Positions 3,404 to 36,577 of a stretch of DNA of 56,373 bases are shown here, piece by piece. The notes below the pieces were generated by a model. It was not told the origin of the DNA. It saw only the letters and a program-made list of their open reading frames with translations, and did not search any database. Numbering within the stretch: position 1 is the first letter of the stretch; every line of letters starts with the position of its first letter. The DNA is from an uncultured Clostridia bacterium (lineage in GTDB: Bacteria; Bacillota; Clostridia; Oscillospirales; JAAYOS01). The position numbers were made by a program, and so were the translations under genes. The stretch spans positions 1-56,373 of the forward strand of contig CANPWY010000002.1 in the NCBI GenBank assembly GCA_947585215.1, written 5' to 3'.

Positions 3404-3433
3404 TTTTTATGGGGATACGCACCTTTTTGTAAC
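3404..3433. repeat. 30-bp repeat copy 1 (TTTTTATGGGGATACGCACCTTTTTGTAAC)
   Basis: Identical 30-mer also at 4009-4038. This copy lies between the divergent precursor gene (minus) and the 3564 gene (plus). Confidence 0.8.
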
Positions 3434-3563
3434 CTTTGCGCGTTTGCGGACTTTATAAAATGTCCCATATTGCGTTTTCACAGATGCTGTGGCATAATGT
3501 GAGTACGGTATCCCTTTTTGAAGCGGCGTATGATTTCGAAAGACGGCTGAACGAGGTGACAGT

Positions 3564-20476: not shown

Positions 20477-20599
20477 AGCACTTGTTCTCCTCTCGTATTT
20501 TTCGGTGACGCCGCGAGCGGCGGGAACCGTCGGCTCCTCTCAGAGGGTATAACGGCGCGGGAGGTTTGTCAATATCGGCGGCGCGAATCGCCGAAAATG

Positions 20600-20690
20600 C
20601 GACTCGAATTGCATTCGACATGCAATTCGAGTCGTGATTTCGTTGATTCGGGACAAAGCGGTTGACAACCGCCCCAAATTTTCGGATACT
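20600..20690 (+). promoter_or_regulatory. promoter/operator region of the GG-peptide array (repeat copy 1)
   Basis: Perfect 15-bp inverted repeat CGACTCGAATTGCAT-5 nt-ATGCAATTCGAGTCG (20600-20634). Direct repeats ATTCGAG (20625) and ATTCGGG (20646) are 21 bp apart. Then TTGACA (20662-20667), 17 nt, GATACT (20685-20690). The block 20616-20697 recurs at 34925-35006. Confidence 0.6.
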
Positions 20691-20800: not shown

Positions 20801-21031
20801 ATGAGCGAAACCAAAAAATTCCAGCGGGGGGGGGCAACGCCTGATTTAAAAGACACCGCCCTGTCCGAAGAAACTCTGGAGAACGTCACCGGCGGTGAGG
20901 AGGGCGCATTTAAGGACGCCTGCACTTATTGCGCCAATCAGGCCGGAAAATGTCCGTTCATCGACAACATATTCACCGTTCTGGATACGATGGAAGGCAG
21001 GCGCGCATGCGCTTACTTTACCCGAGGCTGA
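20801..21031 (+). CDS. GG-leader peptide P1 (4-Cys core)
   Basis: RBS AAGGAGG. Leader MSETKKFQRGGATPDLKDTALSEETLENVTGG. Core has C-x2-C...C...C. Contains a G9 homopolymer at 20826-20834. Confidence 0.75.
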   Translation: MSETKKFQRGGATPDLKDTALSEETLENVTGGEEGAFKDACTYCANQAGKCPFIDNIFTVLDTMEGRRACAYFTRG

Positions 21032-21061
21032 TTTACGACTATAATTAAGGAGGAACATACC

Positions 21062-21328
21062 ATGCTGAACGAAAAGAAGCCCGACGAGAAGACCCTGGAC
21101 GAAAAGACTCTCGAGGGAGTCACCGGCGGGTACAATCCCGACGTTATCGAGCCCAACCCCAATATCCCCACCGGGCCCGATCCCGCGGCGCAGTTCGCTT
21201 TCCTCGAGACGTTTAGGACCGTCAACTGCAACTCCTGCTCAAGACAGGACTGCCTCGCTCGCACCGATACGAAGGAAGCACTCAATCACTTCGGCGAAGG
21301 CATCTGCCCCCTTCGCGAAAGCAAGTAA
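21062..21328 (+). CDS. GG-leader peptide P2 (4-Cys NCxxC family)
   Basis: RBS AAGGAGGAACATACC-ATG. Leader MLNEKKPDEKTLDEKTLEGVTGG. Core has NCNSC...DC...GICP. Confidence 0.8.
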   Translation: MLNEKKPDEKTLDEKTLEGVTGGYNPDVIEPNPNIPTGPDPAAQFAFLETFRTVNCNSCSRQDCLARTDTKEALNHFGEGICPLRESK

Positions 21329-21341
21329 GGAGGAACATACC

Positions 21342-21563
21342 ATGTTTAACGAAAAGAAGCCAGAAGAGAAGACCGTGGACGAAAAGACCCTTGAGGGAGT
21401 CACCGGCGGATACGATTCCGATGACGAGTACGATTTCGCCGATAGGTTTATAGCGAGCAACTGCAACCGCTGCCGCAACATGGACTGCCCCGAGCGCGGC
21501 TACATAATGGCAATAATCAATCAGCACTACGGCGAAAGCATCTGCCCATCTCGCGAAGACTAG
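21342..21563 (+). CDS. GG-leader peptide P3 (4-Cys NCxxC family)
   Basis: Same RBS block as P2. Leader MFNEKKPEEKTVDEKTLEGVTGG. Core has NCNRC...DCP...SICP and is acidic. Confidence 0.8.
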   Translation: MFNEKKPEEKTVDEKTLEGVTGGYDSDDEYDFADRFIASNCNRCRNMDCPERGYIMAIINQHYGESICPSRED

Positions 21564-21579
21564 TAAGGAGGAAAGAGCG

Positions 21580-21795
21580 ATGGATGAGAAAAAGACCCTC
21601 TCCGATGAGACACTGAAAGACGTGTCCGGGGGAACATATGCGATCAATTATCGGGAACTTGAATACTTTGTAGGAAATAATTGCGCGTCTTGCAGCTTCG
21701 ATCAGCTCATGCACGGCTGCCCCTATGGAGGCAAAGTTTATGCATTTCAGGAGTTGGGCAAGGACGGGATCTGCCCGAAAAAGGAGGCAATGTGA
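21580..21795 (+). CDS. GG-leader peptide P4 (4-Cys NCxxC family)
   Basis: Leader MDEKKTLSDETLKDVSGG. Core has NCASC...GCPYGG...GICPKKE. Confidence 0.8.
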   Translation: MDEKKTLSDETLKDVSGGTYAINYRELEYFVGNNCASCSFDQLMHGCPYGGKVYAFQELGKDGICPKKEAM

Positions 21796-22013
21796 CCGTG
21801 GACGAGGAAAAGACCCTGTCCGACGAGGCGCTCGAAGAAGTGTCCGGGGGAATGACTCCGGCAGTACGCAGGGAGTTTGAGAAGTTTGCAAGAAATAATT
21901 GCATGCATTGCAGCCGCAAGGTAGAGCGAGACTGCCCCTATGGAGATGGCATGGAGGCGCTTCAGGCGTTAGGCGAGGACGGGATCTGCCCGGAAAAGGA
22001 GGCGAGGACATGA
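21792..22013 (+). CDS. GG-leader peptide P5 (4-Cys NCxxC family)
   Basis: GTG start overlapping the P4 stop (ATGTGA). Leader VTVDEEKTLSDEALEEVSGG. Core has NCMHC...DCPYGDG...GICPEKE. Confidence 0.75.
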   Translation: MTVDEEKTLSDEALEEVSGGMTPAVRREFEKFARNNCMHCSRKVERDCPYGDGMEALQALGEDGICPEKEART

Positions 22014-22225
22014 CAGACGAAAAGAAGCTGACTGACGAGACTCTCGAAGAAGTGTCCGGGGGAAAATTTCGGGACTTTTCTTTAGGGGGGGTTAGAAATT
22101 TCCAGAACCAGAATTGTGCGCATTGCCTTCACCAGCTGGACTGTCCCTATGGAGGCGCCTCTCAGGTAATTCAGACGGTGGGCGGCTACGCGACCTGCCC
22201 GAACAAGGAGGAGATACAGCCGTGA
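22010..22225 (+). CDS. GG-leader peptide P6 (4-Cys NCxxC family)
   Basis: ATGA overlap with P5. Leader MTDEKKLTDETLEEVSGG. Core has NCAHC...DCPYGG...ATCPNKE. Confidence 0.8.
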   Translation: MTDEKKLTDETLEEVSGGKFRDFSLGGVRNFQNQNCAHCLHQLDCPYGGASQVIQTVGGYATCPNKEEIQP

Positions 22226-22437
22226 CAGACAAAAAGAAACTGCCCGATGAGACGCTGAAAGATGTGTCCGGGGGAGCATTTGTGGAAATTTCTCCCGGAC
22301 TTGACCGCTTTACAGGAAATAATTGCATATCTTGCAGCAACAACCTGCCCGGGCGCGGCTGCCCCTACGGAAGCAGCGTTTATGCATTTAAGGAGTTGGG
22401 CAGGGACGGGATCTGCCCGAAAAAGGAGGCAATGTGA
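22222..22437 (+). CDS. GG-leader peptide P7 (4-Cys NCxxC family)
   Basis: GTGA overlap with P6. Leader VTDKKKLPDETLKDVSGG. Core has NCISC...GCPYGS...GICPKKE. Confidence 0.75.
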   Translation: MTDKKKLPDETLKDVSGGAFVEISPGLDRFTGNNCISCSNNLPGRGCPYGSSVYAFKELGRDGICPKKEAM

Positions 22438-22658
22438 CCGTGGACGAAGAAAAGAAGCTCGACGAAAAAGCTCTGGGCTCGGTCTCAGGAGGGGAGTACA
22501 CGCCGCCGGTATTTGACCGAAATATACGGGTATTCATATGCCCCGCCTGCGGGGAGACCATCAAAGGGGACGATTTCAGCGGCTTGAAGGTGCAGTGCCC
22601 CGGGTGCGGACATTGGCTCCGCCGCGGCTCGTCCGGGCTTATGCTTATGGAGGGATAA
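22434..22658 (+). CDS. GG-leader peptide P8 (zinc-ribbon-like CPxCG x2 core)
   Basis: GTG overlapping the P7 stop. Leader VTVDEEKKLDEKALGSVSGG. Core has ICPACGETIKGDDFSGLKVQCPGCGHWL. Confidence 0.75.
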   Translation: MTVDEEKKLDEKALGSVSGGEYTPPVFDRNIRVFICPACGETIKGDDFSGLKVQCPGCGHWLRRGSSGLMLMEG

Positions 22659-22662
22659 CGAT

Positions 22663-22905
22663 ATGTTTGATACCGATAAATTCCGTCAGGGGGAGGTTCC
22701 TCCCGAGCAGGAGGATTCCCTTGAGAACGTCGCCGGGGGAACGAACTTCTCAAGGCCAAACTATGAATCCCCGGACGTGTCAATGTACAGATGCCCTGTT
22801 TGCGGGGCTACCGTCAAGGACAACCACCTCAACCACTCGCAGCTGAAGTGCAACGGCTGCGGACGCCGGTTTCATCTCAACGGATCAACACTTGTGGAGG
22901 AATAA
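22663..22905 (+). CDS. GG-leader peptide P9 (zinc-ribbon-like core)
   Basis: Leader MFDTDKFRQGEVPPEQEDSLENVAGG. Core has RCPVCG...LKCNGCGRRFHLNGSTLVEE. Confidence 0.8.
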   Translation: MFDTDKFRQGEVPPEQEDSLENVAGGTNFSRPNYESPDVSMYRCPVCGATVKDNHLNHSQLKCNGCGRRFHLNGSTLVEE

Positions 22906-22910
22906 CGAAT

Positions 22911-23153
22911 ATGACTGATACCAATAAATTCCGGCGGGGCGAGGTACCTCCCGAGCAGGAGGACGCTCTCGAGAGCGTCGCCGGAGGCAAGTTCGAAAGG
23001 ACGAACTATGACTTAGAACAGAATAAATTAACGTTCACATGTCCCGCCTGTGGGCGCACGGTCAAAAGCAGCTTCGCCGACGGCCGGCGGCTGCAGTGCC
23101 CCGAGTGCGGACACCAATTTCATCTCAACGGATCACAACTTGTGGAGGAATAG
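22911..23153 (+). CDS. GG-leader peptide P10 (zinc-ribbon-like core)
   Basis: Leader MTDTNKFRRGEVPPEQEDALESVAGG. Core has TCPACG...LQCPECGHQFHLNGSQLVEE. Confidence 0.8.
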   Translation: MTDTNKFRRGEVPPEQEDALESVAGGKFERTNYDLEQNKLTFTCPACGRTVKSSFADGRRLQCPECGHQFHLNGSQLVEE

Positions 23154-23158
23154 CAAAT

Positions 23159-23409
23159 ATGATAGATACCAATAAATTCCAGCGGGGGGGTGCGTACCTC
23201 CTGAGCAGGAGGACGCTCTCGAGAGCGTCTCCGGAGGAGTAACATTCAAAGGGCCGCAAGTTGACGTGACGGAAATAACGCGCACATGCCCCGTCTGCGG
23301 CGCGACTTTCGCAGACAGCGTCGTCAACGGCCAAATGGTCGAGCGGATGCAGTGCCCCAAGTGCAAACGTGTGTTGCGTCTCGTCGGATCAACACTCGTG
23401 GAGGAATAG
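23159..23409 (+). pseudogene. GG-leader peptide P11 (zinc-ribbon-like core), frameshifted at a G7 tract
   Basis: It starts MIDTNKFQRGG, then the frame is lost at 23184-23190. The shifted downstream frame reads VPPEQEDALESVSGGVTFKGPQVDVTEITRTCPVCG...MQCPKCKRVLRLVGSTLVEE and stops at 23407-23409. One extra G would restore the frame. Confidence 0.7.
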
Positions 23410-23411
23410 TC

Positions 23412-23597
23412 ATGAACGAGGATAAAAAGCTCCGCCATGGCGCCTCCCCCAAGCCGCAGGACGCCGCGCTCGATGACAACGCCGTTGAGGCCGTCACCGG
23501 GGGAGTGAAGATGACAAGCAAGGCCCGTGCAGAAAAGGCGTTGGACAAAATCGAGCAGATGCTCGATAATCAGAAAGGCAAGGAGGATCAACCGTGA
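23412..23597 (+). CDS. GG-leader peptide P12 (Cys-free charged core)
   Basis: Leader MNEDKKLRHGASPKPQDAALDDNAVEAVTGG. Core VKMTSKARAEKALDKIEQMLDNQKGKEDQP. Confidence 0.75.
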   Translation: MNEDKKLRHGASPKPQDAALDDNAVEAVTGGVKMTSKARAEKALDKIEQMLDNQKGKEDQP

Positions 23598-23779
23598 ACG
23601 AGGATAAAAAACTCCGCCATGGCGCCTCCCCCAAGCCGCAGGACGCCGCGCTCGACGACGCCTCCGTTGAGGCCGTCACCGGGGGAACGAGGAGGTCAAG
23701 CAATGACTTGGCACAAGATGCATGGGACAAATTAAATCGGGTGCTCGATAATCAGAAAGACAAGGAGGATCAACCGTGA
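23594..23779 (+). CDS. GG-leader peptide P13 (Cys-free charged core)
   Basis: GTGA overlap with P12 and a near-identical leader. Core TRRSSNDLAQDAWDKLNRVLDNQKDKEDQP. Confidence 0.75.
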   Translation: MNEDKKLRHGASPKPQDAALDDASVEAVTGGTRRSSNDLAQDAWDKLNRVLDNQKDKEDQP

Positions 23780-24039
23780 ACGACGAAAAGAAGCTCAACG
23801 AGAAGGAGCTTGAAAACGTATCCGGCGGCGCGGCCGGAGCGGAGGGCTTCGAGGCCGCGTGGGCGGCCTACGCCGCCGAGCACTGCGGCAGATGCTACCA
23901 CCAAAATAAGGCACATCATGTAGAGGCATATACGGGCGAAATGACCGATTTGATGTGCGAAGGCGGAAAGATCTCGGCCGCCGAGGACTGGGCAGCGGGC
24001 ATGCCCATTCGCTGCCCGGCCTTCCTCGAACCGTGCTGA
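23776..24039 (+). CDS. GG-leader peptide P14 (5-Cys core)
   Basis: GTGA overlap with P13. Leader VNDEKKLNEKELENVSGG. Core has HCGRC...MC...RCPAFLEPC. Confidence 0.75.
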   Translation: MNDEKKLNEKELENVSGGAAGAEGFEAAWAAYAAEHCGRCYHQNKAHHVEAYTGEMTDLMCEGGKISAAEDWAAGMPIRCPAFLEPC

Positions 24040-24054
24040 GAAGGAGGAAAAGTT

Positions 24055-24282
24055 ATGAGCGAGAAAAAGAAGATAGACGAGAGGGAGCTGGAAAACGTGA
24101 ACGGCGGCGCAGACGCCGCCTCGGACAGCTTCGACGCCGTCTGGGAGGCGTTCGCCGTCACCCATTGCCACCAATGCGCCGTGCCGTACAAAGACACCTG
24201 CGCCGCGGAAATAAGGCGTGTGCGCGCGCAGTGGGAGGCGGGCAAGCCCCTCAAGTGCATGGCCTTTATCGACAAGTGCTGA
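24055..24282 (+). CDS. GG-leader peptide P15 (5-Cys core)
   Basis: RBS AAGGAGGAAAAG. Leader MSEKKKIDERELENVNGG. Core has HCHQC...TC...KCMAFIDKC. Confidence 0.8.
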   Translation: MSEKKKIDERELENVNGGADAASDSFDAVWEAFAVTHCHQCAVPYKDTCAAEIRRVRAQWEAGKPLKCMAFIDKC

Positions 24283-24373: not shown

Positions 24374-26275
24374 ATGAAAAGAAATACCAGGCGGCGGTAT
24401 CTGCTCGGCGCGGCGGTCATTCTTGCCGTGGCGGCGCTGATACTCGTCGTGTTCTCCCTGCTCAGTATGACCGACAAGAACGACATGGCGCTCGGCGACA
24501 AGGAAACGGAGCGCTTCGGCTGGAGCTATGAGCTCCTCACCGACGAGGGTGTGCGTCCCTACGACCCGGTGTTCCTGAACTGGTACTACATCCAGCTGCC
24601 GGAGGACACACGCGCCGTTCGGATAACCCGCGTCATGACCGAGGACATTCCGACGGCGGAGCTCACCTGGATGAGCTTTCGGGACGGCGTCGAGGTATCT
24701 CTTGACGGTATCCTGCTCTACACCGACTTCCCGTCGCTCGCGCGGGACGAGAACGGCTTCGTTCACCCCGACGAGACGGAGTGGGAGCGCATCTGGCGGC
24801 AGGGCGGCGAGGAGAACGTGCGCTCCACGCGCATGACCCTCCCTGAGGACTACGTCGGCATGACCCTCACCGTCACGACCTACTTCCGCGAGGGATACAT
24901 CGGCACGCCGGAATATCCGTACATCGGCGAGGCGGACGCGATGCTCGCGGCCTCCACCATAGTCCTCTCGGTGCGCTACAACGCCGTTATGACCCTCTAT
25001 GCGCTGCTCGCGCTGCTGATGGCGGGCGTGTTCCTCGTGGAGGTGTACAACGGCACCGGGGACGGCAGGACGCTCCTGCTCTGCCTCTACTTCCTGCTCC
25101 TGTTCCTGAAGGAGGCCTACGGCTCTATCGCCGGATATTACAGCGTGCTCACCGCGCGGCTGGATCTGCGGTTCCTGAGCGCGGTGTACATGGCGCCGCT
25201 CTATCTCTACCTCGTGCTCCGTATGCGGAGCCGGTGGAAGTGGCCGCTGTGCGCCGCCGTCACGGCGTGGGCGGTGTTTGAGAGCGTGTGGGAGCTGAGA
25301 CAGCCGGAGGGAATTGCGGTGCTCGTCGGGCCGGAGACGCTTGCGGTGCTCCTCGTCGTGACGGCGGCGCTCGCCGCCGACGGTCTCCGCCGCAAGGGAC
25401 GCACGGAGCAGGAGAAGAAGCGCCTCCTCGTCTACGGAATAATCGCCGCCGTACTCACGGCGGGATACATGCTGAACCGCATCCGCTCGTGGGACGGCGA
25501 CTTCGTCGGCTACTTCCGCGACGAGCTGTGGAACGGACTGAGCGTCGGCAACTGCTGGCCGGTGGTGAGTCTGCTCACCGGTGTCATATCGTGGATGACC
25601 GTTATCGTCGTCGTGTCCGAGGCCGTCCGCAGGACGCTTGCGACCCACCGCACGATGGACGTGCTCCGCGAGCGGGAACGTCAGACCGTGGCGGGCTACG
25701 AGAGATTGCTCGCGTCGGAGGACGACACCCGCGCCCTGCACCACGAGATGCGCCACCACATGCTCGCGCTCGAGGCTATCCTTGCCGACGGAGATACGGA
25801 GCGCGCCCGGCGGTACGTCGGCGCCGTCGCCGAGGACCTGGCGCAGGTGCCCACAGGGCGGTACTGCCGGAACATTCTCGTGGACATGATAGCCGGGAGC
25901 TTTCTCGACCGTGCGGCGGCGCAGGGCATCCGTGTGGAGCAGCACTTGGACCTGCCCGAGACGCTGAACATCGCCGACGAGGACTTGAGCGTCTTCCTCA
26001 GCAACATGCTCCAAAACGCTCTGGAGGCATGCGAGCGTATGAACCCGGAGCAGGATAGGTATATATGGGTCGATATGCACCTGCGGGGGAACTTCCTCTG
26101 CATACAGTGCGTCAACAGCCGTCCCGAGGGCGAGGAGCCGCGGGAGCGGGAGGGTCACGGCTACGGCCTCACGGCCATGCGCGCCGTGGCTGAAAAATAC
26201 AACAGCGCCCTGCTCATAGAGCGGGCGCCGAAGAGATTTTCGGTTACAAGCGACTTCTGCCTCGAGAAGTTTTGA
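24374..26275 (+). CDS. membrane sensor histidine kinase (GHKL, LytTR-partner type) with a large extracytoplasmic N-terminal domain
   Basis: One TM, an extracytoplasmic segment of about 170 aa, then about 6-7 TM helices. H-box LHHEMRHHMLAL, N-box FLSNMLQNALEA, G-box GHGYGL. Confidence 0.85.
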   Translation: MKRNTRRRYLLGAAVILAVAALILVVFSLLSMTDKNDMALGDKETERFGWSYELLTDEGVRPYDPVFLNWYYIQLPEDTRAVRITRVMTEDIPTAELTWMSFRDGVEVSLDGILLYTDFPSLARDENGFVHPDETEWERIWRQGGEENVRSTRMTLPEDYVGMTLTVTTYFREGYIGTPEYPYIGEADAMLAASTIVLSVRYNAVMTLYALLALLMAGVFLVEVYNGTGDGRTLLLCLYFLLLFLKEAYGSIAGYYSVLTARLDLRFLSAVYMAPLYLYLVLRMRSRWKWPLCAAVTAWAVFESVWELRQPEGIAVLVGPETLAVLLVVTAALAADGLRRKGRTEQEKKRLLVYGIIAAVLTAGYMLNRIRSWDGDFVGYFRDELWNGLSVGNCWPVVSLLTGVISWMTVIVVVSEAVRRTLATHRTMDVLRERERQTVAGYERLLASEDDTRALHHEMRHHMLALEAILADGDTERARRYVGAVAEDLAQVPTGRYCRNILVDMIAGSFLDRAAAQGIRVEQHLDLPETLNIADEDLSVFLSNMLQNALEACERMNPEQDRYIWVDMHLRGNFLCIQCVNSRPEGEEPREREGHGYGLTAMRAVAEKYNSALLIERAPKRFSVTSDFCLEKF

Positions 26276-26278
26276 CGC

Positions 26279-26995
26279 TCAGACCGGCGGACGCCGCCGG
26301 TCGAAGGCGGCGAGAGCCATCTGTATGCCGGAGTAGTCGGAGCGGCCGAGCGGAATGACGTCCCCGGAGGTCAGGCGCAGACGGTCGCGGCTCAGCACGG
26401 CGATGTGCTCGAGGTTGACGAGATAGCTGCGGTGTACGCGCACAAACCTACCCGCGGGAAGCTCGCGCTCAAGCTCCTGAAGCGTGCCCCGCCACGAGCT
26501 CTCGCTGCCGTCCAGGCGGTGGAGCTCCACGACATGGTTGTAAACCTCGAAGTAGAGCGCGTCCGCGACGGGCAGGCGCACGTCGCCCAAGGGCGTCGTG
26601 AGAGACAGCATCTGCGGCGCGTGCCGCTCGAGGAACTGACAGAGCACGCTCTCAAGCTGCTCCGGACGCAGCGGCTTTAGCAGATAGTGCAGGGGACGGA
26701 CGTCATAGCCGTCCACGGCGTATCTCTCGCTCGAGGACATGAGTACCAAGTCGAGATCGAGGTTCCGCTCGCGGAGGAGCTTGCCGAAGCGGATGCCCTT
26801 CTCCTCGCCGAAGAGAATATCGAGGAACAGAAGGTCGCACGGATCGCCCCGGTCCAGCGCGGAAAGCGTCAGGGACGGGTCGGGATAGCAGGTGATATTG
26901 CAGTCCGCGTCCCGCTCTCCGAAGAAGCGGGACAGGGTGGACGAAAGCGCCGAGGCAAAGGCGCTGTCGTCATCACATATAATGATTTCGTACAT
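26279..26995 (-). CDS. LytTR family response regulator
   Basis: Receiver domain MYEIIICDDD...DLLFLDI. C-terminal LytTR domain with FVRVHRSYLVNLEHI. Convergent with the kinase gene, 3 nt apart. Confidence 0.9.
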   Translation of the reverse strand: MYEIIICDDDSAFASALSSTLSRFFGERDADCNITCYPDPSLTLSALDRGDPCDLLFLDILFGEEKGIRFGKLLRERNLDLDLVLMSSSERYAVDGYDVRPLHYLLKPLRPEQLESVLCQFLERHAPQMLSLTTPLGDVRLPVADALYFEVYNHVVELHRLDGSESSWRGTLQELERELPAGRFVRVHRSYLVNLEHIAVLSRDRLRLTSGDVIPLGRSDYSGIQMALAAFDRRRPPV

Positions 26996-27110
26996 GCAGG
27001 TCACCCCCACTGTCTTACGGGAACAAACATTACTTTATCACATTTTTTGCAATAAATCAAGAGGATCCGCCGCGCAGAAAGCATGGCGGACGATACAAGG
27101 AGGAACAACA

Positions 27111-27407
27111 ATGACCATCACCAAGAACCTGAACGGGACACATCTCGACCTCGCGCTCGAGGGACGGCTGGACACCACCACCGCGCCCCTGCTTGAGGCG
27201 GAACTGAAGCAGAGCATAAACGGCGTCACCGAGCTGACGCTGGATTTCGGCGAGCTGGAGTATATCTCCTCCGCGGGACTGAGGGTGCTCCTCAGCGCCC
27301 AGAAGGTCATGAACCGGCAGGACTCCATGGTCATCAAAAATGTTAACGAGACGATAATGGAGATCTTCGAGGTCACCGGCTTCGCGGACATCCTGACTAT
27401 AGAGTGA
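27111..27407 (+). CDS. STAS domain protein (anti-sigma-factor antagonist, SpoIIAA/RsbV-like)
   Basis: 98 aa. RLDTTTAPLLEAEL...LDFGELEYISSAGLRVLL contains the conserved phosphorylatable Ser. RBS AAGGAGG. Confidence 0.85.
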   Translation: MTITKNLNGTHLDLALEGRLDTTTAPLLEAELKQSINGVTELTLDFGELEYISSAGLRVLLSAQKVMNRQDSMVIKNVNETIMEIFEVTGFADILTIE

Positions 27408-27408: not shown

Positions 27409-29973
27409 ATGACGGGTGAGAAGCAAAACGATATGAAGCGCACGCCAATCCGCCGTCAGGTACAGCGGATGGTACTTCTGCTGTGCGTGGCGGCGCTGGT
27501 AGTCACGGGCGTGCTGTGGGCGGGGAGCCTCTTCGCTCTGCGGGACACGGTCCAGCGGGACAGCCAGGACTTGGGCGAGAGCGCGGCCTCCGCCGGCGGC
27601 GAGGCTCTGCTTTCCCAGATGGAGCAGAACCTCTATCAGGGCGTGCGGAGCGAGGCCGCTGTTGTGGACGAGAAGCTGGAGCGCTACGCCGCCGACGTGC
27701 GGGACTTCGCCTTCTACGCCGGGCGGCTCTATGAGGAGCCGGAGGCATACGTGCCGAAGGAGGTCCTGCCCCCGGACGCGGCGAGTCAGTATACCTTTAC
27801 TATGCAGCTCGTGTGGCGGGACAAGAGTACAGACAAGACCGCCGTGCAGGAGGAGATAGGCCTCCTTGCGAATCTTGTCCACATATGGCAGCCGGTGATG
27901 ACCGGCGACACGGAGAACATCGCGTCCATCTATCTCTGCACCGAGAGCGGGTTCATGATAAACTACGACGAGCGCTCCGACCTGACGCCGGATTACTTTG
28001 ACTATGAGCAGTCCGCATGGTATCAGGCCGCGAGGGACACCGGGGACGTTATCTTCACGGTGCCCTATATGGACACCTTCGGCCGCGGGCTCATGCTCAC
28101 CTGCGCCGCGCCGATCCACGACGCGGACGGCCGCTTCGCCGGCGTGGTGTGCATGGACATGATGGTGGAGGATCTTGTGGAGAAGGTGCTCGACATCGAC
28201 TTCGGCGAGGGCTCCTACGGCTTCCTGGTGGACGGAACGGGGAACATCATCGTCTCCCCGCAGATGGAGTACGACGGGACGTTTGAAAACGTCCGCGACC
28301 CGGACTGCCTTGCAAAGGAGGCGGCGGAGAGCATCATGAGCGGCGAGGCGGGCGTCACGCCCACCTCCGAAGGTCTCTACTATGCCTACGCGCCCATCGA
28401 CGCGTCGAACTGGACGCTTGCCGTCCACATGCCGGCGGATATGATAACCGCGCCGGCGGAGAACATCCGCACGGACATAACCGAGCGGACGGAGTCTACC
28501 GCCGGAACCATCGACAGCAATATCGCGCGGACGGGGCTCATTTCGCTTGCGGTATTCGTGGTGATAATCGGAGCGGTAGTCGCCCTGAGCGGAGGATTTT
28601 CCCGGAAGCTCACGGGGCCGCTTCTGGAGTTGCGCTCCGACGTGGAGCACATAAGCGGCGGCGACCTTGCTCATCAGGCCGCCGTGCGGCGCAACGACGA
28701 GATAGGCGACTTGGCGGCGGCTTTCAACGGCATGGCGGGGTCGCTTGACAGGTACATAAAGGATTTGACCGCCGTGACGGCGGAGAAGGAGCGCATCGGC
28801 GCGGAGCTGGACATCGCCACACACATTCAGGCGTCCATGCTGCCCTGTATCTTCCCCGCCTTTCCGAACCGGCGGGAATTCGACGTCTACGCATCAATGA
28901 CGCCCGCCAAGGAGGTAGGCGGCGACTTCTACGACTTCTTCATGGTGGACGACACGCACCTCGCCGTCGTGGTGGCGGACGTGTCCGGCAAGGGCGTTCC
29001 GGCGGCGCTGTTCATGGTCATCGGCAAGACGCTCATCAAGGACCACACCACCCCGAACAGAGACCTGGGCGAGGTGTTCATGGAGGTGAACCGCCTCCTG
29101 TGCGAAGGAAACGCCGAGGAGATGTTCATCACCGCCTTCGAGGGAGTGCTGGACCTTGAGACAGGCCGGTTCGACTTCGGCAACGCCGGCCATGAGACGC
29201 CGTTCATTTGCAGAAAGGGCGAGGGCTACGCCCCCTATAAGATACGCGCGGGCTTCGTGCTTGCGGGCATGGAGGGAACGCGCTACCGCATGGGCTCCTT
29301 GCAGCTTGAACCCGGCGACAAGCTGTTCCAGTACACGGACGGCGTCACCGAGGCCACAAACAGCCGGAGCGAGCTGTACGGCATGGAGCGGCTTGAGGCG
29401 GTGCTGAACCGCAACGCCGCCGCAGCGCCTGACGAGCTTCTCCTGAAGGTGAAGGCGGATATCGACGCCTTCGTGGGCGGAGCGCCGCAATTCGACGACA
29501 TCACGATGCTGTGCTTGGAGTTCAGTGAAAGAATGCGCGCATCCGACCAAAGCGAGCTCACCGTGGAGGCGGAGACGGAGAACATCCCCGTCGTGACGGC
29601 CTTTGTTGACGGCAAGCTGGAAGCGCTCGACTGCCCCGCGAAGGCCAAGACGCAGATAGACGTCGCCATCGACGAGCTGTTCGGCAACATCGCCCGGTAC
29701 GCTTACGACCCATCCGGCCCGGTGACCGTTCGGGTGGAAACGGAGAGGGAGCCAAAGACCGTGCGCATCACCTTCATCGACCGAGGAAAGCCCTACGACC
29801 CGCTTGCAAAGCCCGACCCGGACGTGACATTGCCCGCGGAGGAGCGGCCCATCGGGGGACTCGGCGTCTACATGGTGAAAAAGAGCATGGACGACGTGCG
29901 CTACGAGTACAGGGACGGCCAAAATATCCTGACGGTGGAAAAGCGTTTGCAGGACACGTCGGGAAAAGAATGA
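27409..29973 (+). CDS. dCache-HAMP-PP2C (SpoIIE) phosphatase fused to an RsbW-like HATPase Ser/Thr kinase domain
   Basis: TM1, extracytoplasmic Cache-like region of about 330 aa, TM2, and a HAMP domain (NDEIGDLAAAFNGMAGSL). PP2C motifs EVGGDFYDF and VADVSGKGVPAALFM. C-terminal region VAIDELFGNIARYAY...GGLGVYMVKKSMD. Starts 1 nt after the STAS stop. Confidence 0.8.
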   Translation: MTGEKQNDMKRTPIRRQVQRMVLLLCVAALVVTGVLWAGSLFALRDTVQRDSQDLGESAASAGGEALLSQMEQNLYQGVRSEAAVVDEKLERYAADVRDFAFYAGRLYEEPEAYVPKEVLPPDAASQYTFTMQLVWRDKSTDKTAVQEEIGLLANLVHIWQPVMTGDTENIASIYLCTESGFMINYDERSDLTPDYFDYEQSAWYQAARDTGDVIFTVPYMDTFGRGLMLTCAAPIHDADGRFAGVVCMDMMVEDLVEKVLDIDFGEGSYGFLVDGTGNIIVSPQMEYDGTFENVRDPDCLAKEAAESIMSGEAGVTPTSEGLYYAYAPIDASNWTLAVHMPADMITAPAENIRTDITERTESTAGTIDSNIARTGLISLAVFVVIIGAVVALSGGFSRKLTGPLLELRSDVEHISGGDLAHQAAVRRNDEIGDLAAAFNGMAGSLDRYIKDLTAVTAEKERIGAELDIATHIQASMLPCIFPAFPNRREFDVYASMTPAKEVGGDFYDFFMVDDTHLAVVVADVSGKGVPAALFMVIGKTLIKDHTTPNRDLGEVFMEVNRLLCEGNAEEMFITAFEGVLDLETGRFDFGNAGHETPFICRKGEGYAPYKIRAGFVLAGMEGTRYRMGSLQLEPGDKLFQYTDGVTEATNSRSELYGMERLEAVLNRNAAAAPDELLLKVKADIDAFVGGAPQFDDITMLCLEFSERMRASDQSELTVEAETENIPVVTAFVDGKLEALDCPAKAKTQIDVAIDELFGNIARYAYDPSGPVTVRVETEREPKTVRITFIDRGKPYDPLAKPDPDVTLPAEERPIGGLGVYMVKKSMDDVRYEYRDGQNILTVEKRLQDTSGKE

Positions 29974-29993
29974 TCACAGCGGAGGAAACGACT

Positions 29994-30470
29994 ATGGACA
30001 ACGGACTGTTTCGTCGGAAGACGCTGGACAAGGTGTCCAGCCCGGAGCAGATGAACGACTATATCCGGGTGACAAGTCCCGGCGTGTGGTTGGTACTGGC
30101 GGCGGTTATAGCGCTCCTTGCGGGGCTCATCATCTGGTCGGCGCTCGGCCGCTTGGAGACTACGGTGACGGCCGTGGCGGTGGCCGGGCCGGACGGCGGC
30201 CCCGTGTGTTACATAGCCGAGGACGACATGGACGCCGTCCGCGCGGGTCAGACCGTGCACATCGCGGGGAAGGACTATACCCTTTCCGGGGTGGCGGCGA
30301 AGCCGGTTCCGGCGGACGGAAGTCTCGACGCCTACGCCCTGCACGTGGGCGGCATGGAGGCGGACGGGTGGGTGTACCCCGCCGAGCTTGACGCGGTTCT
30401 TTCCGAAGGCATCTACGAGGCGCGGATAGTGGTGGACAGCGTGGCGCCAATCTCGTTTCTGCTGAACTGA
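29994..30470 (+). CDS. short HlyD-like secretion adaptor (NHLP bacteriocin system type)
   Basis: Start at MDNGLFRRKTLDKVSSPEQMNDYIRVTSPGVWLVL with RBS GGAGGAAA, followed by a single TM helix. An alternative ATG at 29970 overlaps the upstream stop. Confidence 0.7.
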   Translation: MDNGLFRRKTLDKVSSPEQMNDYIRVTSPGVWLVLAAVIALLAGLIIWSALGRLETTVTAVAVAGPDGGPVCYIAEDDMDAVRAGQTVHIAGKDYTLSGVAAKPVPADGSLDAYALHVGGMEADGWVYPAELDAVLSEGIYEARIVVDSVAPISFLLN

Positions 30471-30477: not shown

Positions 30478-32652
30478 ATGAGAAAACAGGAGATAAAAAA
30501 GCCCGTCACAAAGGGCGTGGCGAAGGTGCCGGTCGTCATGCAGATGGAGACGCTGGAGTGCGGCGCGGCCTCCCTTGCCATGGTGCTGGCATTCTATAAC
30601 AAGTGGGTGCCGCTCGAGCAGGTGCGCGCGGACTGCGGCGTGAGCCGGGACGGCTCCAACGCAAAGAACGTGCTGAAAGCCGCGAGAAGCTACGGCCTCA
30701 CGGCAAACGCGTACCGTCTGGAGCCGGAGGATCTGCGGGAGAACGGAAGCTTCCCCTGCATCATCCACTGGAACTTCAATCACTTCGTGGTGCTCGACGG
30801 CTTCAAGGGCGGCAAGGCCATACTGAACGACCCTGCTCGGGGCATCGTCCCGGTGAGCATGGAGAACTTCGACGAATCCTTCACCGGTATCTGTCTGACG
30901 TTCGAGCCGGGGGAGGATTTCCGACCCGGCGGCAGTCCCAAGAGCATGGTGGGCTACGCGAAAAAGCGCCTCACCGGAGCGGGCGCAGCGCTCGTGTTCG
31001 TGATGCTGACGACGCTGATAAGCTCCCTCTTCGGCGTGATAAACCCCGCCTTCTCCCGCATCTTCATGGATCGGCTCCTGACGGGCGAGAACCCGGAGTG
31101 GCTGTGGCCGTTCATTCTGGTGCTGGCGGGTGTGAGCATACTTCAGCTTGTAGTGGCATGGGTGCAGGCGATATGGTCGCTTCGCATCACGGGAAAGCTT
31201 GCCGCGGTGGGCTCGGCCACTTTCCTTTGGAAGGTACTGCACATGCCGATGGAGTTCTTCTCCCAACGCATGGCGGGCGACATACGTCAGCGGCAGTCCA
31301 CCAACGCCTCCATCGCTCAGGAGCTGGTGAACACTCAGGGTCCGCTGGTGCTGAACGCCATCATGATGGTGTTCTATCTGGTGGTCATGCTGCGGTATTC
31401 GTGGATACTCACCATAGTGGGTCTCTCGTCCGTACTCATCACTCTGGTGGTGAGCCGGTATATCTCAAAGAAGCGGGTGAACATCACCCGCGTGCAGATG
31501 CGCGACTCCGGCAAGCTGACGTCTTCCACCATGGCGGCCATCGAGATGATAGAGACCATCAAGGCCGCCGGAGCGGAGAACGGCTATTTTGAGCGCTGGG
31601 CGGGGTATCAGGCAAGCGTCAACACCCAGCAGATGCGATATGCAAAGACGGACGCGTACCTCGGACTCATTCCGTCCGTCGTGAGCGTCATCAGGGACGC
31701 TGTCTTCCTGTTCCTCGGCGTGCTGTTTGTCATGCAGGGTGAGTTCACCATCGGTATGGTCATGGCGTTTCAGGGCTTTCTCATGAGCTTCACCGCCCCG
31801 GCGACGACGCTCATCGACGCCGGGCAGACCATTCAGGAAATGCGCACCGAGATGGAACGCGTGGAGGACGTGATGGAGTACCCCGAGGACAGCAACATGA
31901 CCGAGTCGGAGGAGCAGGAAAACTGCGACAAGCTCACGGGAGCCTTGGAGATGAAGCACGTCACCTTCGGCTAATCCAAGCTAGCCGAGCCGCTCATTGA
32001 GGACTTCAATCTTAGCCTGAAGCCGGGAAGCCGTGTGGCCTTCGTCGGCGGCTCCGGCTGCGGAAAATCGACGCTCAGCAAGCTCATCTCGGGCCTTTAC
32101 CGACCGTGGAGCGGAGAGATACTCTTCGACGGCAAGCCGATACGCGAGATCGACCGGAGCGTGTTTACCGGGTCGCTCGCCGTCGTTGATCAGGACGTCA
32201 TCCTCTTCGAGGACACCATCGCCGAGAACATAAAGATGTGGGACAAGTCCATAGAGGACTTTGAGATGATCCTCGCGGCTCGGGACGCAGGCATACACAG
32301 CGACATCATAAAGCGCGAGGGCGGCTACGACCACAAGCTCGTCGAGGGCGGCCGGGACTTCTCCGGCGGCCAGCGCCAGCGCATGGAGATAGCGCGCGTC
32401 CTCGCGCAGGACCCCACCATCATCATACTTGACGAAGCCACGTCCGCTCTGGACGCCAAGACGGAATACGAGGTAGTGAAGTCCATCAAGGACAGGGGCG
32501 TCACCTGCATCGTGGTGGCTCACCGGCTCTCTACCATCCGGGACTGCGACGAGATAATCGTCCTGGACCACGGCAAGGTGGTGGAGCGCGGCACCCATGA
32601 CGAGCTTTACGCCATGGGTGGGTACTACACCCGTCTGGTGTCCAACGACTGA
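30478..32652 (+). pseudogene. bacteriocin-type ABC exporter with N-terminal C39 peptidase domain, interrupted by one in-frame TAA (31972-31974)
   Basis: C39 motifs VVMQMETLECGAASLAMVL and IIHWNFNHFVVL, followed by 6 TM helices. [40 protein letters not shown] continues in the same frame through Walker A, LSGGQRQR and [10 protein letters not shown]. Confidence 0.8.
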
Positions 32653-32666: not shown

Positions 32667-34865
32667 ATGGGATGGTTTGACGAACAGATAAGAGAGCGCC
32701 GGCGCCGCGATCAGCAGGCCTTCGAGGAGGGCGTTGAATCCATCGCGGGGGCGGTACTGGGCCGTCGCGGCGCACCGGGCGGCGGGAGCCGTCAGGCACA
32801 GAGCGCCATGGACGAGATCCTGCGATACTACCACGCAAAGAGTCGGGAACTGCCCGACTCGGTGAAGGACTTAAACGAACAGCTCGAATTTCTCCTGCGT
32901 CCCTACGGCATCATGCGCCGGACGGTGAACTTGGAGAAGGGCTGGTACAAGGACGCCGTCGGGGCGATGCTCGCCCGACGGAAGTCGGACGGAGCCCTCG
33001 CGGCCATGATCCCCACGGGGCTTTCGGGCTACACCTACGCCGACCCGGACACGGGCAGGCGCCGCCGGGTGAACGCCCGGACGGAGGAGCTCTTTGAAAG
33101 GGAAGCCATTGCTTTCTATAAGCCCTTCCCGCAGGGGAAGATAGGCATCCCGGGTCTGATGAAATACATAGTTTCCAGCACCTCGGTTGCGGACTGGATA
33201 CTCTTTGCCGCGTCCGCACTCGCGGTGAGCCTTGTGGGACTGCTCCTGCCCCGGCTTAACAACCTCCTGTTTTCACGGGTGGCGGCGAGCGGGAGCGTGA
33301 CGGTGCTCGCGGCGCTGGTGAGCTTCATGCTGCTCGTGAACGTCAGCTCCCTCCTTTTGGGGGCGGTGAAGAAGATACTCACCACGCGCATGAACACGAA
33401 GGTCTCCGTGTCGGTGGAGGCCGCGGCGATGATGCGCCTTTTCTCCCTGCCCGCAAACTTCTTCCGGCAGTACAGCACCGGCGAGATGTCGAGCCGCGTC
33501 ATGAATATCAAGACGCTTTCTACTCTGCTCATCTCCTCGGTGGCGGCGGTGGGAATTACGAGCCTCTTCTCCCTCCTGCAGATAACCCAGATCTTCGCCT
33601 ACGCCCCGGCGCTTGTGGCGCCGGCGCTTATCATCGTCGCCGTGACGCTCGTGTTCTCGGTGCTGACGACGGTGCGTCAGCGGAGCGTCACCCAACAGAA
33701 GATGGAGCAGAGCGCCAAGGAGAACGGACTCTCCTACGCCCTCATCAGCGGCGTGCAGAAGGTGAAGCTCTCCGGCGCGGAGAAAAGGGCGTTCGCAAAG
33801 TGGAGCGAGCAGTACGCCAAGGGCGCGCGTCTTCAGTACGACCCGCCCATGTTTTTGAAGGTGAACGGCGTTATCAGCCTCGCCATCTCCCTCACCGGGA
33901 CGCTCGTGATGTACGCTGTGGCGGTGAAGAGCGGCGTGTCTGCGGCGGAATACTACGCCTTCAACTCCGCCTACGCCATGATAAGCGGCGCGTTTATGTC
34001 CCTTGCCGGAATTGCGGCCATGGTGGGTCAGATAATCCCCATCCTCAATATGGCAAAGCCCATCTTGGAGGCGGAGCCGGAGATAGCGGAGGAGAAGCAG
34101 ATGGTGGGCCGTCTCGCCGGAGGCATCGAGCTCAACAACGTCTCCTTCCGTTACTCGGAGGATATGCCGAACGTCCTCGACGACCTGAGCCTCAAGATAC
34201 GCCCCGGCCAGTATGTGGCAATCGTCGGAAAGACCGGCTGCGGCAAATCGACGCTCATGCGCCTGCTTCTCGGCTTCGAGACGCCCCAGAGGGGCGCCGT
34301 CTATTACGACGGGCGGGACATGGCGGGGCTTGATTTGAAAAGCCTGCGGCGGCGCATGGGCGTCGTTATGCAGGACGGCAAGCTCTTTCAGGGCGACATC
34401 TACTCCAACATCACCATCTCCGCGCCGTGGCTCACCATGGACGACGCGTGGGAAGCGGCGGAGATGGCGGGCGTGGCGGAGGACATCCGGCGCATGCCCA
34501 TGGGGATGCACACCCTCATCTCCGAGGGAAGCGGCGGCATCTCCGGCGGTCAGCGCCAGAGACTGCTGATTGCCCGCGCAATCGCGCCGAAGCCGCGCAT
34601 ACTCATGTTTGATGAGGCGACCTCTGCGCTCGACAACATCACTCAGCGGGTGGTGTCCGAGTCGCTCGACAAGCTCAAATGCACCCGCATCGTGATAGCC
34701 CACCGGCTCAGCACCATCCGCCACTGCGACCGGATAATCGTGCTTGACGGCGGCCATATCGTGGAGGACGGCACCTACGACGAGCTTATAGCCCAAAACG
34801 GCTTCTTTGCGGAGCTGGTGTCGCGTCAGCGGCTGGATACGGACGCCGCCGCGAGTGACAATTAA
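32667..34865 (+). CDS. second bacteriocin-type ABC exporter permease/ATPase (no C39 domain; N-terminal accessory domain)
   Basis: 732 aa. An N-terminal domain of about 150 aa, 6 TM helices, Walker [28 protein letters not shown]. The pairing with a C39-ABC and a HlyD-like gene matches NHLP-type exporters. Confidence 0.85.
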   Translation: MGWFDEQIRERRRRDQQAFEEGVESIAGAVLGRRGAPGGGSRQAQSAMDEILRYYHAKSRELPDSVKDLNEQLEFLLRPYGIMRRTVNLEKGWYKDAVGAMLARRKSDGALAAMIPTGLSGYTYADPDTGRRRRVNARTEELFEREAIAFYKPFPQGKIGIPGLMKYIVSSTSVADWILFAASALAVSLVGLLLPRLNNLLFSRVAASGSVTVLAALVSFMLLVNVSSLLLGAVKKILTTRMNTKVSVSVEAAAMMRLFSLPANFFRQYSTGEMSSRVMNIKTLSTLLISSVAAVGITSLFSLLQITQIFAYAPALVAPALIIVAVTLVFSVLTTVRQRSVTQQKMEQSAKENGLSYALISGVQKVKLSGAEKRAFAKWSEQYAKGARLQYDPPMFLKVNGVISLAISLTGTLVMYAVAVKSGVSAAEYYAFNSAYAMISGAFMSLAGIAAMVGQIIPILNMAKPILEAEPEIAEEKQMVGRLAGGIELNNVSFRYSEDMPNVLDDLSLKIRPGQYVAIVGKTGCGKSTLMRLLLGFETPQRGAVYYDGRDMAGLDLKSLRRRMGVVMQDGKLFQGDIYSNITISAPWLTMDDAWEAAEMAGVAEDIRRMPMGMHTLISEGSGGISGGQRQRLLIARAIAPKPRILMFDEATSALDNITQRVVSESLDKLKCTRIVIAHRLSTIRHCDRIIVLDGGHIVEDGTYDELIAQNGFFAELVSRQRLDTDAAASDN

Positions 34866-35061: not shown

Positions 35062-36300
35062 ATGGACGAACTGAGAGCAAGGACAAATCCCGCCTTCAAC
35101 GGAGCCAAGTCGACGCTGGTGTACCTCGTGGAGGCCGGGGACGGGAACGCGGCCATGATGGCGGGGGAGCTGAACATCGACCCCAACGCCGTGTTCGGCG
35201 GCGAGAAGAGGGACGCTCTGAGTATGGGCATGATGGCCACCGTGGACGCCGGCTACGAGATCATGAACAAGATCATGTCCTCCGTGCCGGAGAAGACCAT
35301 CGTCGATCTGGGCTGCGGCTACACTCCCCGGGCGCTGATCCCGGAGCTTGAAAACAAGCACTACATAGGCTGTGACCTGCCCATCGTCATCGACGAGATG
35401 GCTCCGCTCGCAAAGAAGCTTCTTGCGGGCAAAAACCGCCCCGCCCCGGCGGAGTACAAGGCGGCGGACTTCACAAACTACGACTCTCTGCGCGCCGCTC
35501 TGAACGGCGTGGAGGGGCCGGTGTGCCTCGAAAGTCAGAGCACGCTGGACTACCTCACTCAGTCGGAGGTGCGTCAGCTCTGCGCCAACGTGCGCCGGGT
35601 GCTTGTGGAGTTCGGCGGCCGCTGGCTCACCCCGGACGTTGAGGCGGGCGACCGCACGGTGAACACGCTGATGGCCGTCGTGGGCGCGGACGCCCTGCGG
35701 GATGTTATGAGCGCCTTCACCACGCTGTCCTCCGAGACGGACGTAGTGGTGGGTGACAATGATATGATCATCCGCTACGGCTATACGGATGACATTCCCA
35801 AGTGCGCGGCTCTGCTGAAAGAGGTCGGTCTGAAGGCAAAGAAGATCACCATGAGCGATTACATGCCCGAGCTGAAGGTGTTTGGAAAGCTCAACGATGA
35901 ACAGCGGGCGGCCATGAAGAAGGCATACGAAAGCCTGAACGCGTGGGAGCTGACCCCTGACCCCGACTGGACCGAGCCCGAGGCGAAGACGGGCGGCGAA
36001 TTCGGCATTGACACCGCCGTGAACGGCTCTGACCTCACCGTCACCCTGCGGGGCCGGGTGGACTCGCTCACTGCGCCGGAGTTCCTCGCCGCCTTTGAAA
36101 AGGTCGCCGGGGAGAACGCCCTCGCCGCCGCGACGGTGGATATGTCGAACCTTGAGTACATCTCCTCCGCCGGACTCCGTGTCCTGCTCATCATGACGAA
36201 GCGCCTCGGCGCGGGCCATGTGATCGTCACCGGCGCAAACGAGCTAATCCGCTCCATCTTCGAGCAGACCGGCTATGACGACATTCTGAGGATACGATAA
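35062..36300 (+). CDS. class I SAM-dependent methyltransferase-like domain fused to a C-terminal STAS domain
   Basis: N-terminal region with IVDLGCGYTPRAL (motif I, Leu-carboxyl/TcmP-like). The C-terminal 100 aa reads LRGRVDSLTAPEFLAAF...VDMSNLEYISSAGLRVLLIM, paralogous to the stand-alone STAS protein. Confidence 0.7.
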   Translation: MDELRARTNPAFNGAKSTLVYLVEAGDGNAAMMAGELNIDPNAVFGGEKRDALSMGMMATVDAGYEIMNKIMSSVPEKTIVDLGCGYTPRALIPELENKHYIGCDLPIVIDEMAPLAKKLLAGKNRPAPAEYKAADFTNYDSLRAALNGVEGPVCLESQSTLDYLTQSEVRQLCANVRRVLVEFGGRWLTPDVEAGDRTVNTLMAVVGADALRDVMSAFTTLSSETDVVVGDNDMIIRYGYTDDIPKCAALLKEVGLKAKKITMSDYMPELKVFGKLNDEQRAAMKKAYESLNAWELTPDPDWTEPEAKTGGEFGIDTAVNGSDLTVTLRGRVDSLTAPEFLAAFEKVAGENALAAATVDMSNLEYISSAGLRVLLIMTKRLGAGHVIVTGANELIRSIFEQTGYDDILRIR

Positions 36301-36328: not shown

Positions 36329-36577
36329 ATGAACGACGAAAAGAAACTGAACGAAAAGAAGCTGGACGAAAAGACCTTGGAAGAGGTCACCGGCGGGAAC
36401 AGCATATCGGATGAGTATAAGGCGGAAGAGTGGTACTTTATCGTTGACAACTGCATCGGCTACTGCGTCTACGAGGGTCCGGGGGGCTGCCCCTACGCAG
36501 ATAAGCACGCCGCCTACGCCGCCAGAAACCCCGACGGCTCCTGCCCCGGTCAGAAGAAGCACAAAGACTTAATGTAA
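36329..36577 (+). CDS. GG-leader peptide P16 (4-Cys family, orphan copy)
   Basis: RBS AAGGAGGAACAAAAA-ATG. Leader MNDEKKLNEKKLDEKTLEEVTGG. Core has NCIGYC...GGCPY...GSCP. Confidence 0.8.
   Translation: MNDEKKLNEKKLDEKTLEEVTGGNSISDEYKAEEWYFIVDNCIGYCVYEGPGGCPYADKHAAYAARNPDGSCPGQKKHKDLM

Follow-up and report, generated by a model that had tools for sequence, protein, structure and literature searches.

A family of small peptides with a double-glycine (GG) leader and a four-cysteine core is encoded in contig CANPWY010000002.1 of an uncultured Clostridia bacterium (assembly GCA_947585215.1), whose positions 1 to 56,373, 56,373 nucleotides in all, are called the window in what follows. Seven of the genes, P1-P7, belong to an operon-like series of 15 short GG-leader peptide genes placed back to back on the forward strand at 20801-24282, and an eighth, P16, is located further downstream (Table 1); the open reading frames (ORFs) of all eight were verified at the coordinates claimed for them by an earlier interpretation made from the letters alone (the sequence-only reading). 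The explanation that we favour, and hold to be fairly probable, is that these peptides are exported, unmodified, Cys-clamped mini-proteins with variable surfaces, which would serve uncultured gut Oscillospiraceae as effectors of competition or signalling. The locus, judged by its gene content, appears to be of bacteriocin type, and it belongs to an uncultured rabbit-gut bacterium.

The consensus of P2-P7 and P16 is F-x3-N-C-x2/3-C-x4-8-C-P-Y-G-x~16-C-P-x-K-E. In an alignment of the eight window sequences the invariant positions are the four Cys and L, V, G and G of the leader, while the seven cores of P2-P7 and P16 also agree in F12, N16, C17, C20, C29, C47 and P48 (P4-core numbering). The pattern given by the sequence-only reading was essentially right and requires three corrections: the gap between the second and third Cys (C2-C3) is 4-8 residues in the window (four in P2 and P3, five in P6) and not 6-9, P2 has C-L in place of C-P, and P16 ends in CPGQKK, without the (K/R)-E. 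P1, which had been included only loosely, does indeed lack the Asn and the second Pro, and appears to represent a divergent sister subfamily that is also present in a related locus, L001.

A profile built from the cores only found 10 proteins in a word-indexed collection of 5.8 billion and, by exhaustive HMMER search of 1.84 billion representatives, 29 proteins at E<=1e-3, of which seven reach E<=1e-10; the HMMER matches from outside the window have E values from 7e-14 to 5e-4. All 29 are 63-88 residues long, carry a GG leader and keep F-x3-N-C-x2/3-C...C-P-Y-G...C-P-x-K-E, and an alignment of 33 sequences shows the F, the N and all four Cys without variation, with at least 90% conservation of the P and Y of CPY. 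A profile of 43 sequences, used in a second search, returned 40 matches, none of which has a name or a Pfam domain from any source. The profile matches were pooled with the array neighbours read from fetched loci, giving 78 distinct sequences. Their cores contain four Cys in 63 cases, five in 13 and six in two, and the extra Cys of the five-Cys members adjoin scaffold Cys. C1 and C2 are separated by two residues in 67 sequences and by three in 11, C2 and C3 by 4-10 (mode 7), C3 and C4 by 15-22 (mode 17); Pro follows C3 in 72/78 and C4 in 55/78. Because it is conserved in these 78 sequences, which include other genomes, the four-Cys scaffold is a real family signature, and the strong divergence between its Cys, also remarked upon by the sequence-only reading, is equally real. 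Nearly all sources are rabbit-gut or gut metagenome assemblies, to which three NCBI records of metagenome-assembled genomes (MAGs) are added; members occur only in a few gut lineages, with up to 7-8 hypervariable copies per genome.

Scans of the cores against Pfam and NCBIfam gave no core-family match, bacteriocin core families included, and TIGR01847 and ComC matched weakly and within the leader only. Neither a family-model match nor a hallmark motif of pediocin-like peptides, glycocins, lactococcin 972 and similar groups was found with Pfam, NCBIfam and the PDB profile at E<0.9, and the peptides therefore match no known family of disulfide-stabilised bacteriocins in these collections. Structure prediction, which the sequence-only reading had named as a check, returned a two-helix mini-protein: the AlphaFold2 (AF2) model of the P4 core, made with the 33-sequence alignment, has a predicted local distance difference test score (pLDDT) of 84.7 and a predicted template modelling score (pTM) of 0.69, with residues 6-17 and 34-41 helical and a bridge from C20 to residue 52. 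Foldseek found no match to this model in PDB at E<=0.001, and a PDB sequence-profile search gave nothing significant, the best hit being the zinc knuckle of PRDM4 (2l9z, E 0.93). No description of this four-Cys family was found in the literature. With neither name, model nor structural relative, the core family appears to be undescribed, and it would add a new core to a kind of system already known, namely a GG-peptide locus with an NHLP-type exporter.

The leaders of P1-P7 and P16 are 18-32 residues long, end in ...L-E/K-x-V-S/T-G-G and are hydrophobic at -4, -7 and -12; this type, L(-12)...L(-7)-E-x-V(-4)-S/T-G-G, is found in 8/8 window members and in all homologs. The cores that follow have 44-65 residues and are hydrophilic, with the four invariant Cys. 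An AAGGAGG-type ribosome-binding site precedes each of the 15 array genes, overlaps of 4 nt (ATGA/GTGA) link P4 to P8 and P12 to P14, the remaining gaps measure 2-30 nt, and the array genes are translationally coupled. The palindrome upstream of P1 (Table 1) may be an operator for the array. The leader of P1 contains a run of nine G (20826-20834), and P11 goes out of frame at a run of seven (23184-23190), where a strain in run X5 has one G more; such homopolymer runs in P1 and P11 could reflect slipped-strand variation or an assembly error.

The array is followed by a membrane histidine kinase and a LytTR-type regulator, by a STAS protein and a SpoIIE protein that appear to form a partner-switching module, and by two NHLP-type ABC proteins, ABC1 and ABC2. 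ABC1 has a Peptidase_C39 domain (E 4e-33), and its LECG, NHF and NDP motifs, assigned by eye without an alignment, are taken by us to hold the expected C39 catalytic residues. No gene for a radical SAM enzyme, LanM, YcaO, a cyclodehydratase, a glycosyltransferase or Dsb was found in the locus (20.5-37.6 kb), and no recognisable maturase in the related loci L001, L012, L015, L018 and L020. A PAP2 phosphatase, weakly similar to undecaprenyl-diphosphatases, follows P16 and is also adjacent to family genes in L008; VanY-like M15 peptidases stand beside family peptide genes in L020 (15417-16151) and L006 (618-1361). These PAP2 and M15 proteins are possible candidates for immunity functions and may hint at an envelope target.

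On the explanation that we favour, the array would be transcribed from the promoter-like site downstream of the palindrome, the C39 domain would cleave after GG, and the ABC pair would export the unmodified core. The core would fold as two helices, with CxxC ending helix 1, CPYG in the connecting loop and CP near the C-terminus; together the Cys of the three motifs would make one clamp. The variable residues between the Cys would form the surface, each paralog being a different effector with its own target. Interbacterial competition seems the likeliest role, of a bacteriocin-like kind that would be receptor-targeted rather than membrane-lytic. Control would be density-dependent, through the kinase/LytTR pair, which perhaps senses P12/P13, together with the partner-switching module, and the PAP2 and M15 proteins would be candidates for immunity functions of a cell-wall type.

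Several observations weigh against this explanation. The cores are hydrophilic (mean grand average of hydropathy, GRAVY, -0.63) and non-cationic (mean net charge -0.5, range -7 to +5; n=78 for both), unlike typical class II bacteriocins. P4, P5 and P6 score 12.0-13.9 bits with TIGR01847, below its cut-off of 15.7, the model having 15 positions and being a weak test; only the neighbour P14 passes, with 17.6 bits. Small immunity genes are not found between the peptide genes. In ABC1 an in-frame TAA (31972-31974), for which related strains have TAT (Tyr), separates the membrane domain from the ATPase domain, and in L003, the syntenic locus of a close strain, gene calling gives two ORFs, one with the C39 domain and one with the remainder; because of these interruptions export is not assured in these strains. 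In L015 and L018 no exporter or regulator is found within 10 kb of the array. Finally, a search of RNA runs found none covering the array region.

Some of these points would suit a different role for an equally exported product, that is, peptides that signal or scavenge metals, or mini-proteins for matrix or adhesion, an alternative that we judge unlikely while giving it more weight than the others below. Hydrophilic cores of near-neutral or acidic charge and the lack of interspersed immunity genes speak for it, the locus is heavy in regulators (besides the kinase/LytTR pair, a SpoIIE phosphatase-kinase and two proteins with STAS), giant genes for lipoprotein-like products precede some arrays, and small secreted proteins with a GG motif are known to act in biofilm formation (PMC4997328). 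The many divergent paralogs per array and the exchange of cassettes between strains, however, fit an arms-race effector better; the Cys-free P12/P13 are better candidates for pheromones, and the PAP2 and Peptidase_M15 genes (the latter in L006 and L020) beside the peptide genes could be the immunity genes.

The type of exporter raises a second alternative, in which the peptides are precursors of peptides made on the ribosome and modified after translation (RiPPs), their Cys or other residues being modified, for example by thioether or other cross-links, by an enzyme that is encoded elsewhere or has escaped recognition; the NHLP-type exporter would then handle the modified product. TIGR03794, TIGR03796 and TIGR03797 all have matches in the locus, and exporter trios of this type are classically tied to modified peptides and hypervariable precursor arrays (PMC2887384). 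Three proteins to which no role could be given lie in or beside the loci: the 412-residue, weakly methyltransferase-like protein with STAS, the 166-residue membrane protein and one of 258 residues in L020. We nevertheless consider modification improbable, and clearly more so than the previous alternative. No recognisable maturase occurs here or in the five related loci named above, the sole radical SAM enzyme of the window is an ACGX enzyme with its own substrate, 17 kb off, the leaders are of the short classic GG type and not NHLP or Nif11, and the cores are predicted to fold unaided.

A cytoplasmic ferredoxin-like or Fe-S/metal-cluster family, the character that the sequence-only reading had found a better likeness than a bacteriocin, is the least probable explanation by far, for the four invariant Cys with their CxxC and two Cys-Pro, the extra Cys beside scaffold Cys in some members and the single non-significant zinc-knuckle match are set against a GG export leader and an array setting in all of about 78 members, a dedicated C39 ABC exporter in a locus with an AgrC/LytTR pair, and up to 7-8 hypervariable copies per genome in a few gut lineages, unlike a housekeeping redox protein. 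An Fe-S cluster as such is very unlikely because the spacing, C-x2/3-C-x4-10-C-x15-22-C, is neither CxxCxxCxxxCP nor any other Fe-S motif, the Fer4, rubredoxin and HiPIP models have no match to the family at E<=1, the peptides carry export leaders and the hypervariable copies in each genome are many. Simple Zn binding by the four Cys is a live possibility.

In the predicted model the four Cys would make a single clamp, which may be a Zn(Cys)4-type site or may consist of two disulfides, and we give these two options similar credence, for each somewhat short of even. A metal/thiol clamp is what three features of the loci point toward: the presence of CPxCG...CxxCG GG peptides alongside the family at four loci, the fact that an odd fifth Cys is frequent (13/78) and adjoins a scaffold Cys, and the lack of a thiol-oxidoreductase gene in the locus. 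The gut is a reducing habitat, which was counted in favour of the Zn(Cys)4-type clamp. The tolerance of both x2 and x3 between C1 and C2 points toward disulfides, as does the disulfide bonding of other exported GG peptides, among them peptides from gut anaerobes, for example bacteroidetocin A (PMC12648112). A more far-reaching and rather doubtful proposal is that the family and the zinc-ribbon-like GG peptides together make up a new class of metallo-mini-proteins exported by peptidase-containing ABC transporters (PCATs), which, once outside the cell in the reducing lumen of the gut, would fold around a Zn(Cys)4-type (or other metal/thiol) centre and have metal-dependent activity, possibly on cell-envelope precursors given the PAP2/M15 neighbours.

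Between strains the family genes are conserved. The ortholog cores of P2-P6 differ from those of L003 by 9.0 synonymous (Sd) and 7.0 non-synonymous differences (Nd), a ratio of proportions (pN/pS) of 0.20 (Fisher p 0.0016), and because of this ratio P2-P6 are real genes under current constraint. Among paralogs in the window many pairs are synonymously saturated, and for the pairs with unsaturated synonymous divergence (dS) the ratio of non-synonymous to synonymous divergence (dN/dS, omega) of the cores is 0.44 (P4-P5), 0.55 (P5-P6), 0.79 (P5-P7), 1.03 (P4-P6), 1.30 (P6-P7), 1.36 (P2-P3) and 2.04 (P4-P7). In no pair is dN significantly greater than dS (Fisher p >= 0.23 where omega exceeds 1), and the leaders, with omega of 0.13-0.67, are more constrained than the cores (0.4-2.0). 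The diversifying selection suggested by the sequence-only reading is not demonstrated by these values, the orthologs being under purifying selection; fast divergence on a fixed scaffold does appear to be supported.

The family always occurs in multi-paralog arrays and often has with it GG peptides of the zinc-ribbon-like type as well as the regulatory set seen here; the contexts of three homologs (P0012, P0013 and P0014) were seen only on contigs of 0.7-2.3 kb. In the P7 slot L003 has a mosaic paralog whose leader and last ~40 nt are identical to those of P7 while the middle of the core differs, which looks like a cassette-like mosaic. In L001, from an Oscillospiraceae MAG, a counterpart of the 412-residue STAS protein (508-1746, 85% identical) stands immediately upstream of the GG-peptide genes, as it does here, and the five GG peptides after it comprise two P16-like members and one each of the zinc-ribbon-like, P1-like and NCxxC kinds. 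When genome contigs were scanned with this protein, only the L001 contig was returned. L020, from another MAG, has a seven-gene array in which family members stand with three zinc-ribbon-like peptides and a charged peptide free of Cys; after the array come a STAS protein, an M15 peptidase, a further peptide, a kinase of the same type, a LytTR regulator and a Cache-HAMP-SpoIIE protein, so that the kinase/regulator/STAS/SpoIIE set adjoins the array in this locus too; L012 has a mixed array similar to that of L020. The arrays of L015 and L018 directly follow giant genes of 2804-3077 residues (L015 600-9014; L018 691-9924), whose products have no Pfam match and consist of a lipoprotein-like signal and then repeat-rich sequence.

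With systems of unmodified class II bacteriocins and GG peptides that PCATs export, and that are under the three-component control of a kinase, a LytTR regulator and a peptide pheromone, the locus has in common the GG leader, hydrophobic at -4, -7 and -12, the C39 ABC exporter, the AgrC/ComD-type kinase with a LytTR regulator, several precursors per operon and the lack of a modifying enzyme. It departs from them in the four-Cys cores, which have no YGNGV or GxxxG-rich helix and are slightly acidic on average rather than cationic and amphiphilic, in the lack of paired immunity genes and in TIGR01847 scores under the cut-off. Like NHLP/Nif11 precursor systems (Haft et al. 2010, PMC2887384) and prochlorosin-type arrays, it has TIGR03796, TIGR03797 and an N-terminal TIGR03794 fragment, and many paralogous precursors in which the leader is conserved and the core hypervariable. 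The leaders here, however, have 18-32 residues, in contrast to the NHLP/Nif11 domains of roughly 80, and no NHLP or Nif11 leader model is among the matches listed in the NCBIfam scan at E<=1; a LanM, cyclodehydratase or radical SAM partner is also missing here and the HlyD-like protein is just 166 residues long. Glycocins (sublancin 168, glycocin F) are comparable in their GG leader, SunT-type PCAT export and two-helix, four-Cys core of ~40-50 residues. They have nested Cx6C...Cx6C disulfides and an S- or O-linked sugar, and their loci encode a glycosyltransferase and thiol-disulfide oxidoreductases, whereas here the Cys are spaced CxxC...C...C, and genes for a glycosyltransferase or Bdb/Dsb are missing from the locus. 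Zinc ribbons and knuckles share CxxC with two more Cys and the Cys-Pro dipeptides, and the neighbours P8-P11 have two CPxCG-type knuckles; the family, however, has a single CxxC and a helical model in place of a beta-hairpin, its best E value to a knuckle is 0.93, and known zinc ribbons are intracellular while the peptides here have export leaders. Sactipeptides and ranthipeptides differ in that no radical SAM/SPASM maturase adjoins the array.

GG-peptide loci are common, and what sets this one apart is a core that departs from the cationic, membrane-active design of bacteriocins: a soluble Cys-clamped scaffold that seems to tolerate almost any surface, in arrays of up to 7-8 variants. With a metal site as the clamp, the peptides would be an unusual case of zinc mini-proteins secreted by bacteria, and the interest would be higher; with disulfides, they would represent a compact scaffold that is new and of strictly anaerobic origin. 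In both cases the family would offer a tractable entry to the chemical ecology of uncultured Oscillospiraceae and possibly a scaffold for engineering.

The other peptides of the array, which make up three further families, have GG leaders and different cores. P8-P11 are a separate, zinc-ribbon-like family whose Pfam zinc-ribbon matches are sub-threshold; an export leader on such a domain is unexpected. Two-knuckle GG peptides of this kind were also found in L001 (1764-1961), L012 (6147-6368) and L020 (10402-11050). The AF2 model of P10, made with window sequences only, is all-beta (pLDDT 75.8); Foldseek gave no significant match to it, the higher-probability ones, zinc-ribbon ribosomal proteins and HOIP zinc fingers, being suggestive only. 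P12 and P13, with an analogous Cys-free charged peptide in L020 (10253-10405), are candidate pheromones for the adjoining kinase; between strains the P12 core has pN 0.275 and pS 0.229. P14 and P15 had been attached by the sequence-only reading to the four-Cys scaffold through their CxxC pair. The likeness is there in the leader and the helix-CxxC stretch, and goes no further, the hhalign alignment ending at column 43, so that the two appear to form a different core family. Compared with L003 (12259-12762), Nd and Sd are 19.8 and 6.2 in the P14 core and 10 and 2 in the P15 core, that is, the strain differences are mostly non-synonymous, unlike those of the conserved four-Cys orthologs.

Table 1. 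Features of the window, in order of position
Feature	Coordinates	Strand	Remarks
Radical SAM/SPASM enzyme, ACGX system	1966-3000	-	TIGR04340, 579 bits
ACGX-repeat peptide gene	3097-3468	-	Directly upstream of the radical SAM/SPASM gene; product ends ...AACGAADKPEKKPAACGTACGAADKPAEAPAACGAADKPE
Palindrome, 17-bp stem	20598-20636	+	Near-perfect, within a 56-nt imperfect inverted repeat
Promoter-like TTGACA-17-GATACT	20662-20690	+	Consensus match only; just downstream of the palindrome
P1 precursor	20801-21031	+	32-residue GG leader and 44-residue core, C-x2-C-x6-CPF-x18-C
P2 precursor	21062-21328	+	23-residue leader; NCNSC...CL...ICPLRE
P3 precursor	21342-21563	+	NCNRC...CPE...ICPSRE
P4 precursor	21580-21795	+	NCASC...CPYG...ICPKKE; core used for AF2 modelling
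P5 precursor	21792-22013	+	GTG start, overlaps P4 stop
P6 precursor	22010-22225	+	ORF and alignment
P7 precursor	22222-22437	+	GTG start
P8-P11	22434-23409	+	GG leaders, zinc-ribbon-like CPxCG...CxxCG cores
P12, P13	23412-23779	+	Cys-free, highly charged, GG leader, end KEDQP
P14, P15	23776-24282	+	Five-Cys GG-leader peptides, C-terminal residue Cys
Membrane histidine kinase, GHKL HATPase_c_5, AgrC/ComD type	24374-26275	+	Domain match
LytTR-type response regulator	26279-27010	-	L003 ortholog: Response_reg and LytTR
STAS anti-sigma-antagonist	27111-27407	+	Domain match
Cache-HAMP-SpoIIE(PP2C)-HATPase_c_2 protein	27409-29973	+	Domain match
166-residue membrane protein	29970-30470	+	TIGR03794 (NHLP HlyD-like), E 1.4e-10, profile positions 1-48 of 421 only
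ABC1, NHLP-type C39-peptidase/permease/ATPase	30478-32652	+	TIGR03796, 544 and 340 bits over two halves
ABC2, NHLP-type exporter permease/ATPase	32667-34865	+	TIGR03797, 735.8 bits (cut-off 709.4)
412-residue protein	35062-36300	+	Methyltransf_25 in N-terminal part (weak, E 0.029), C-terminal STAS
P16 precursor	36329-36577	+	NCIGYC...CPYA...SCPGQKK; C-x3-C variant; outside the interval of the sequence-only reading
PAP2 phosphatase	36670-37629	+	After P16; weak match to undecaprenyl-diphosphatases

The radical SAM/SPASM enzyme at 1966-3000 was considered as a maturase for the array and rejected, its own ACGX substrate being adjacent and the array lying across unrelated genes; enzyme and peptide appear to constitute a separate RiPP-like system. 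Elsewhere in the window, genes for sugar utilisation lie upstream of the locus and a type IV pilus cluster lies downstream.

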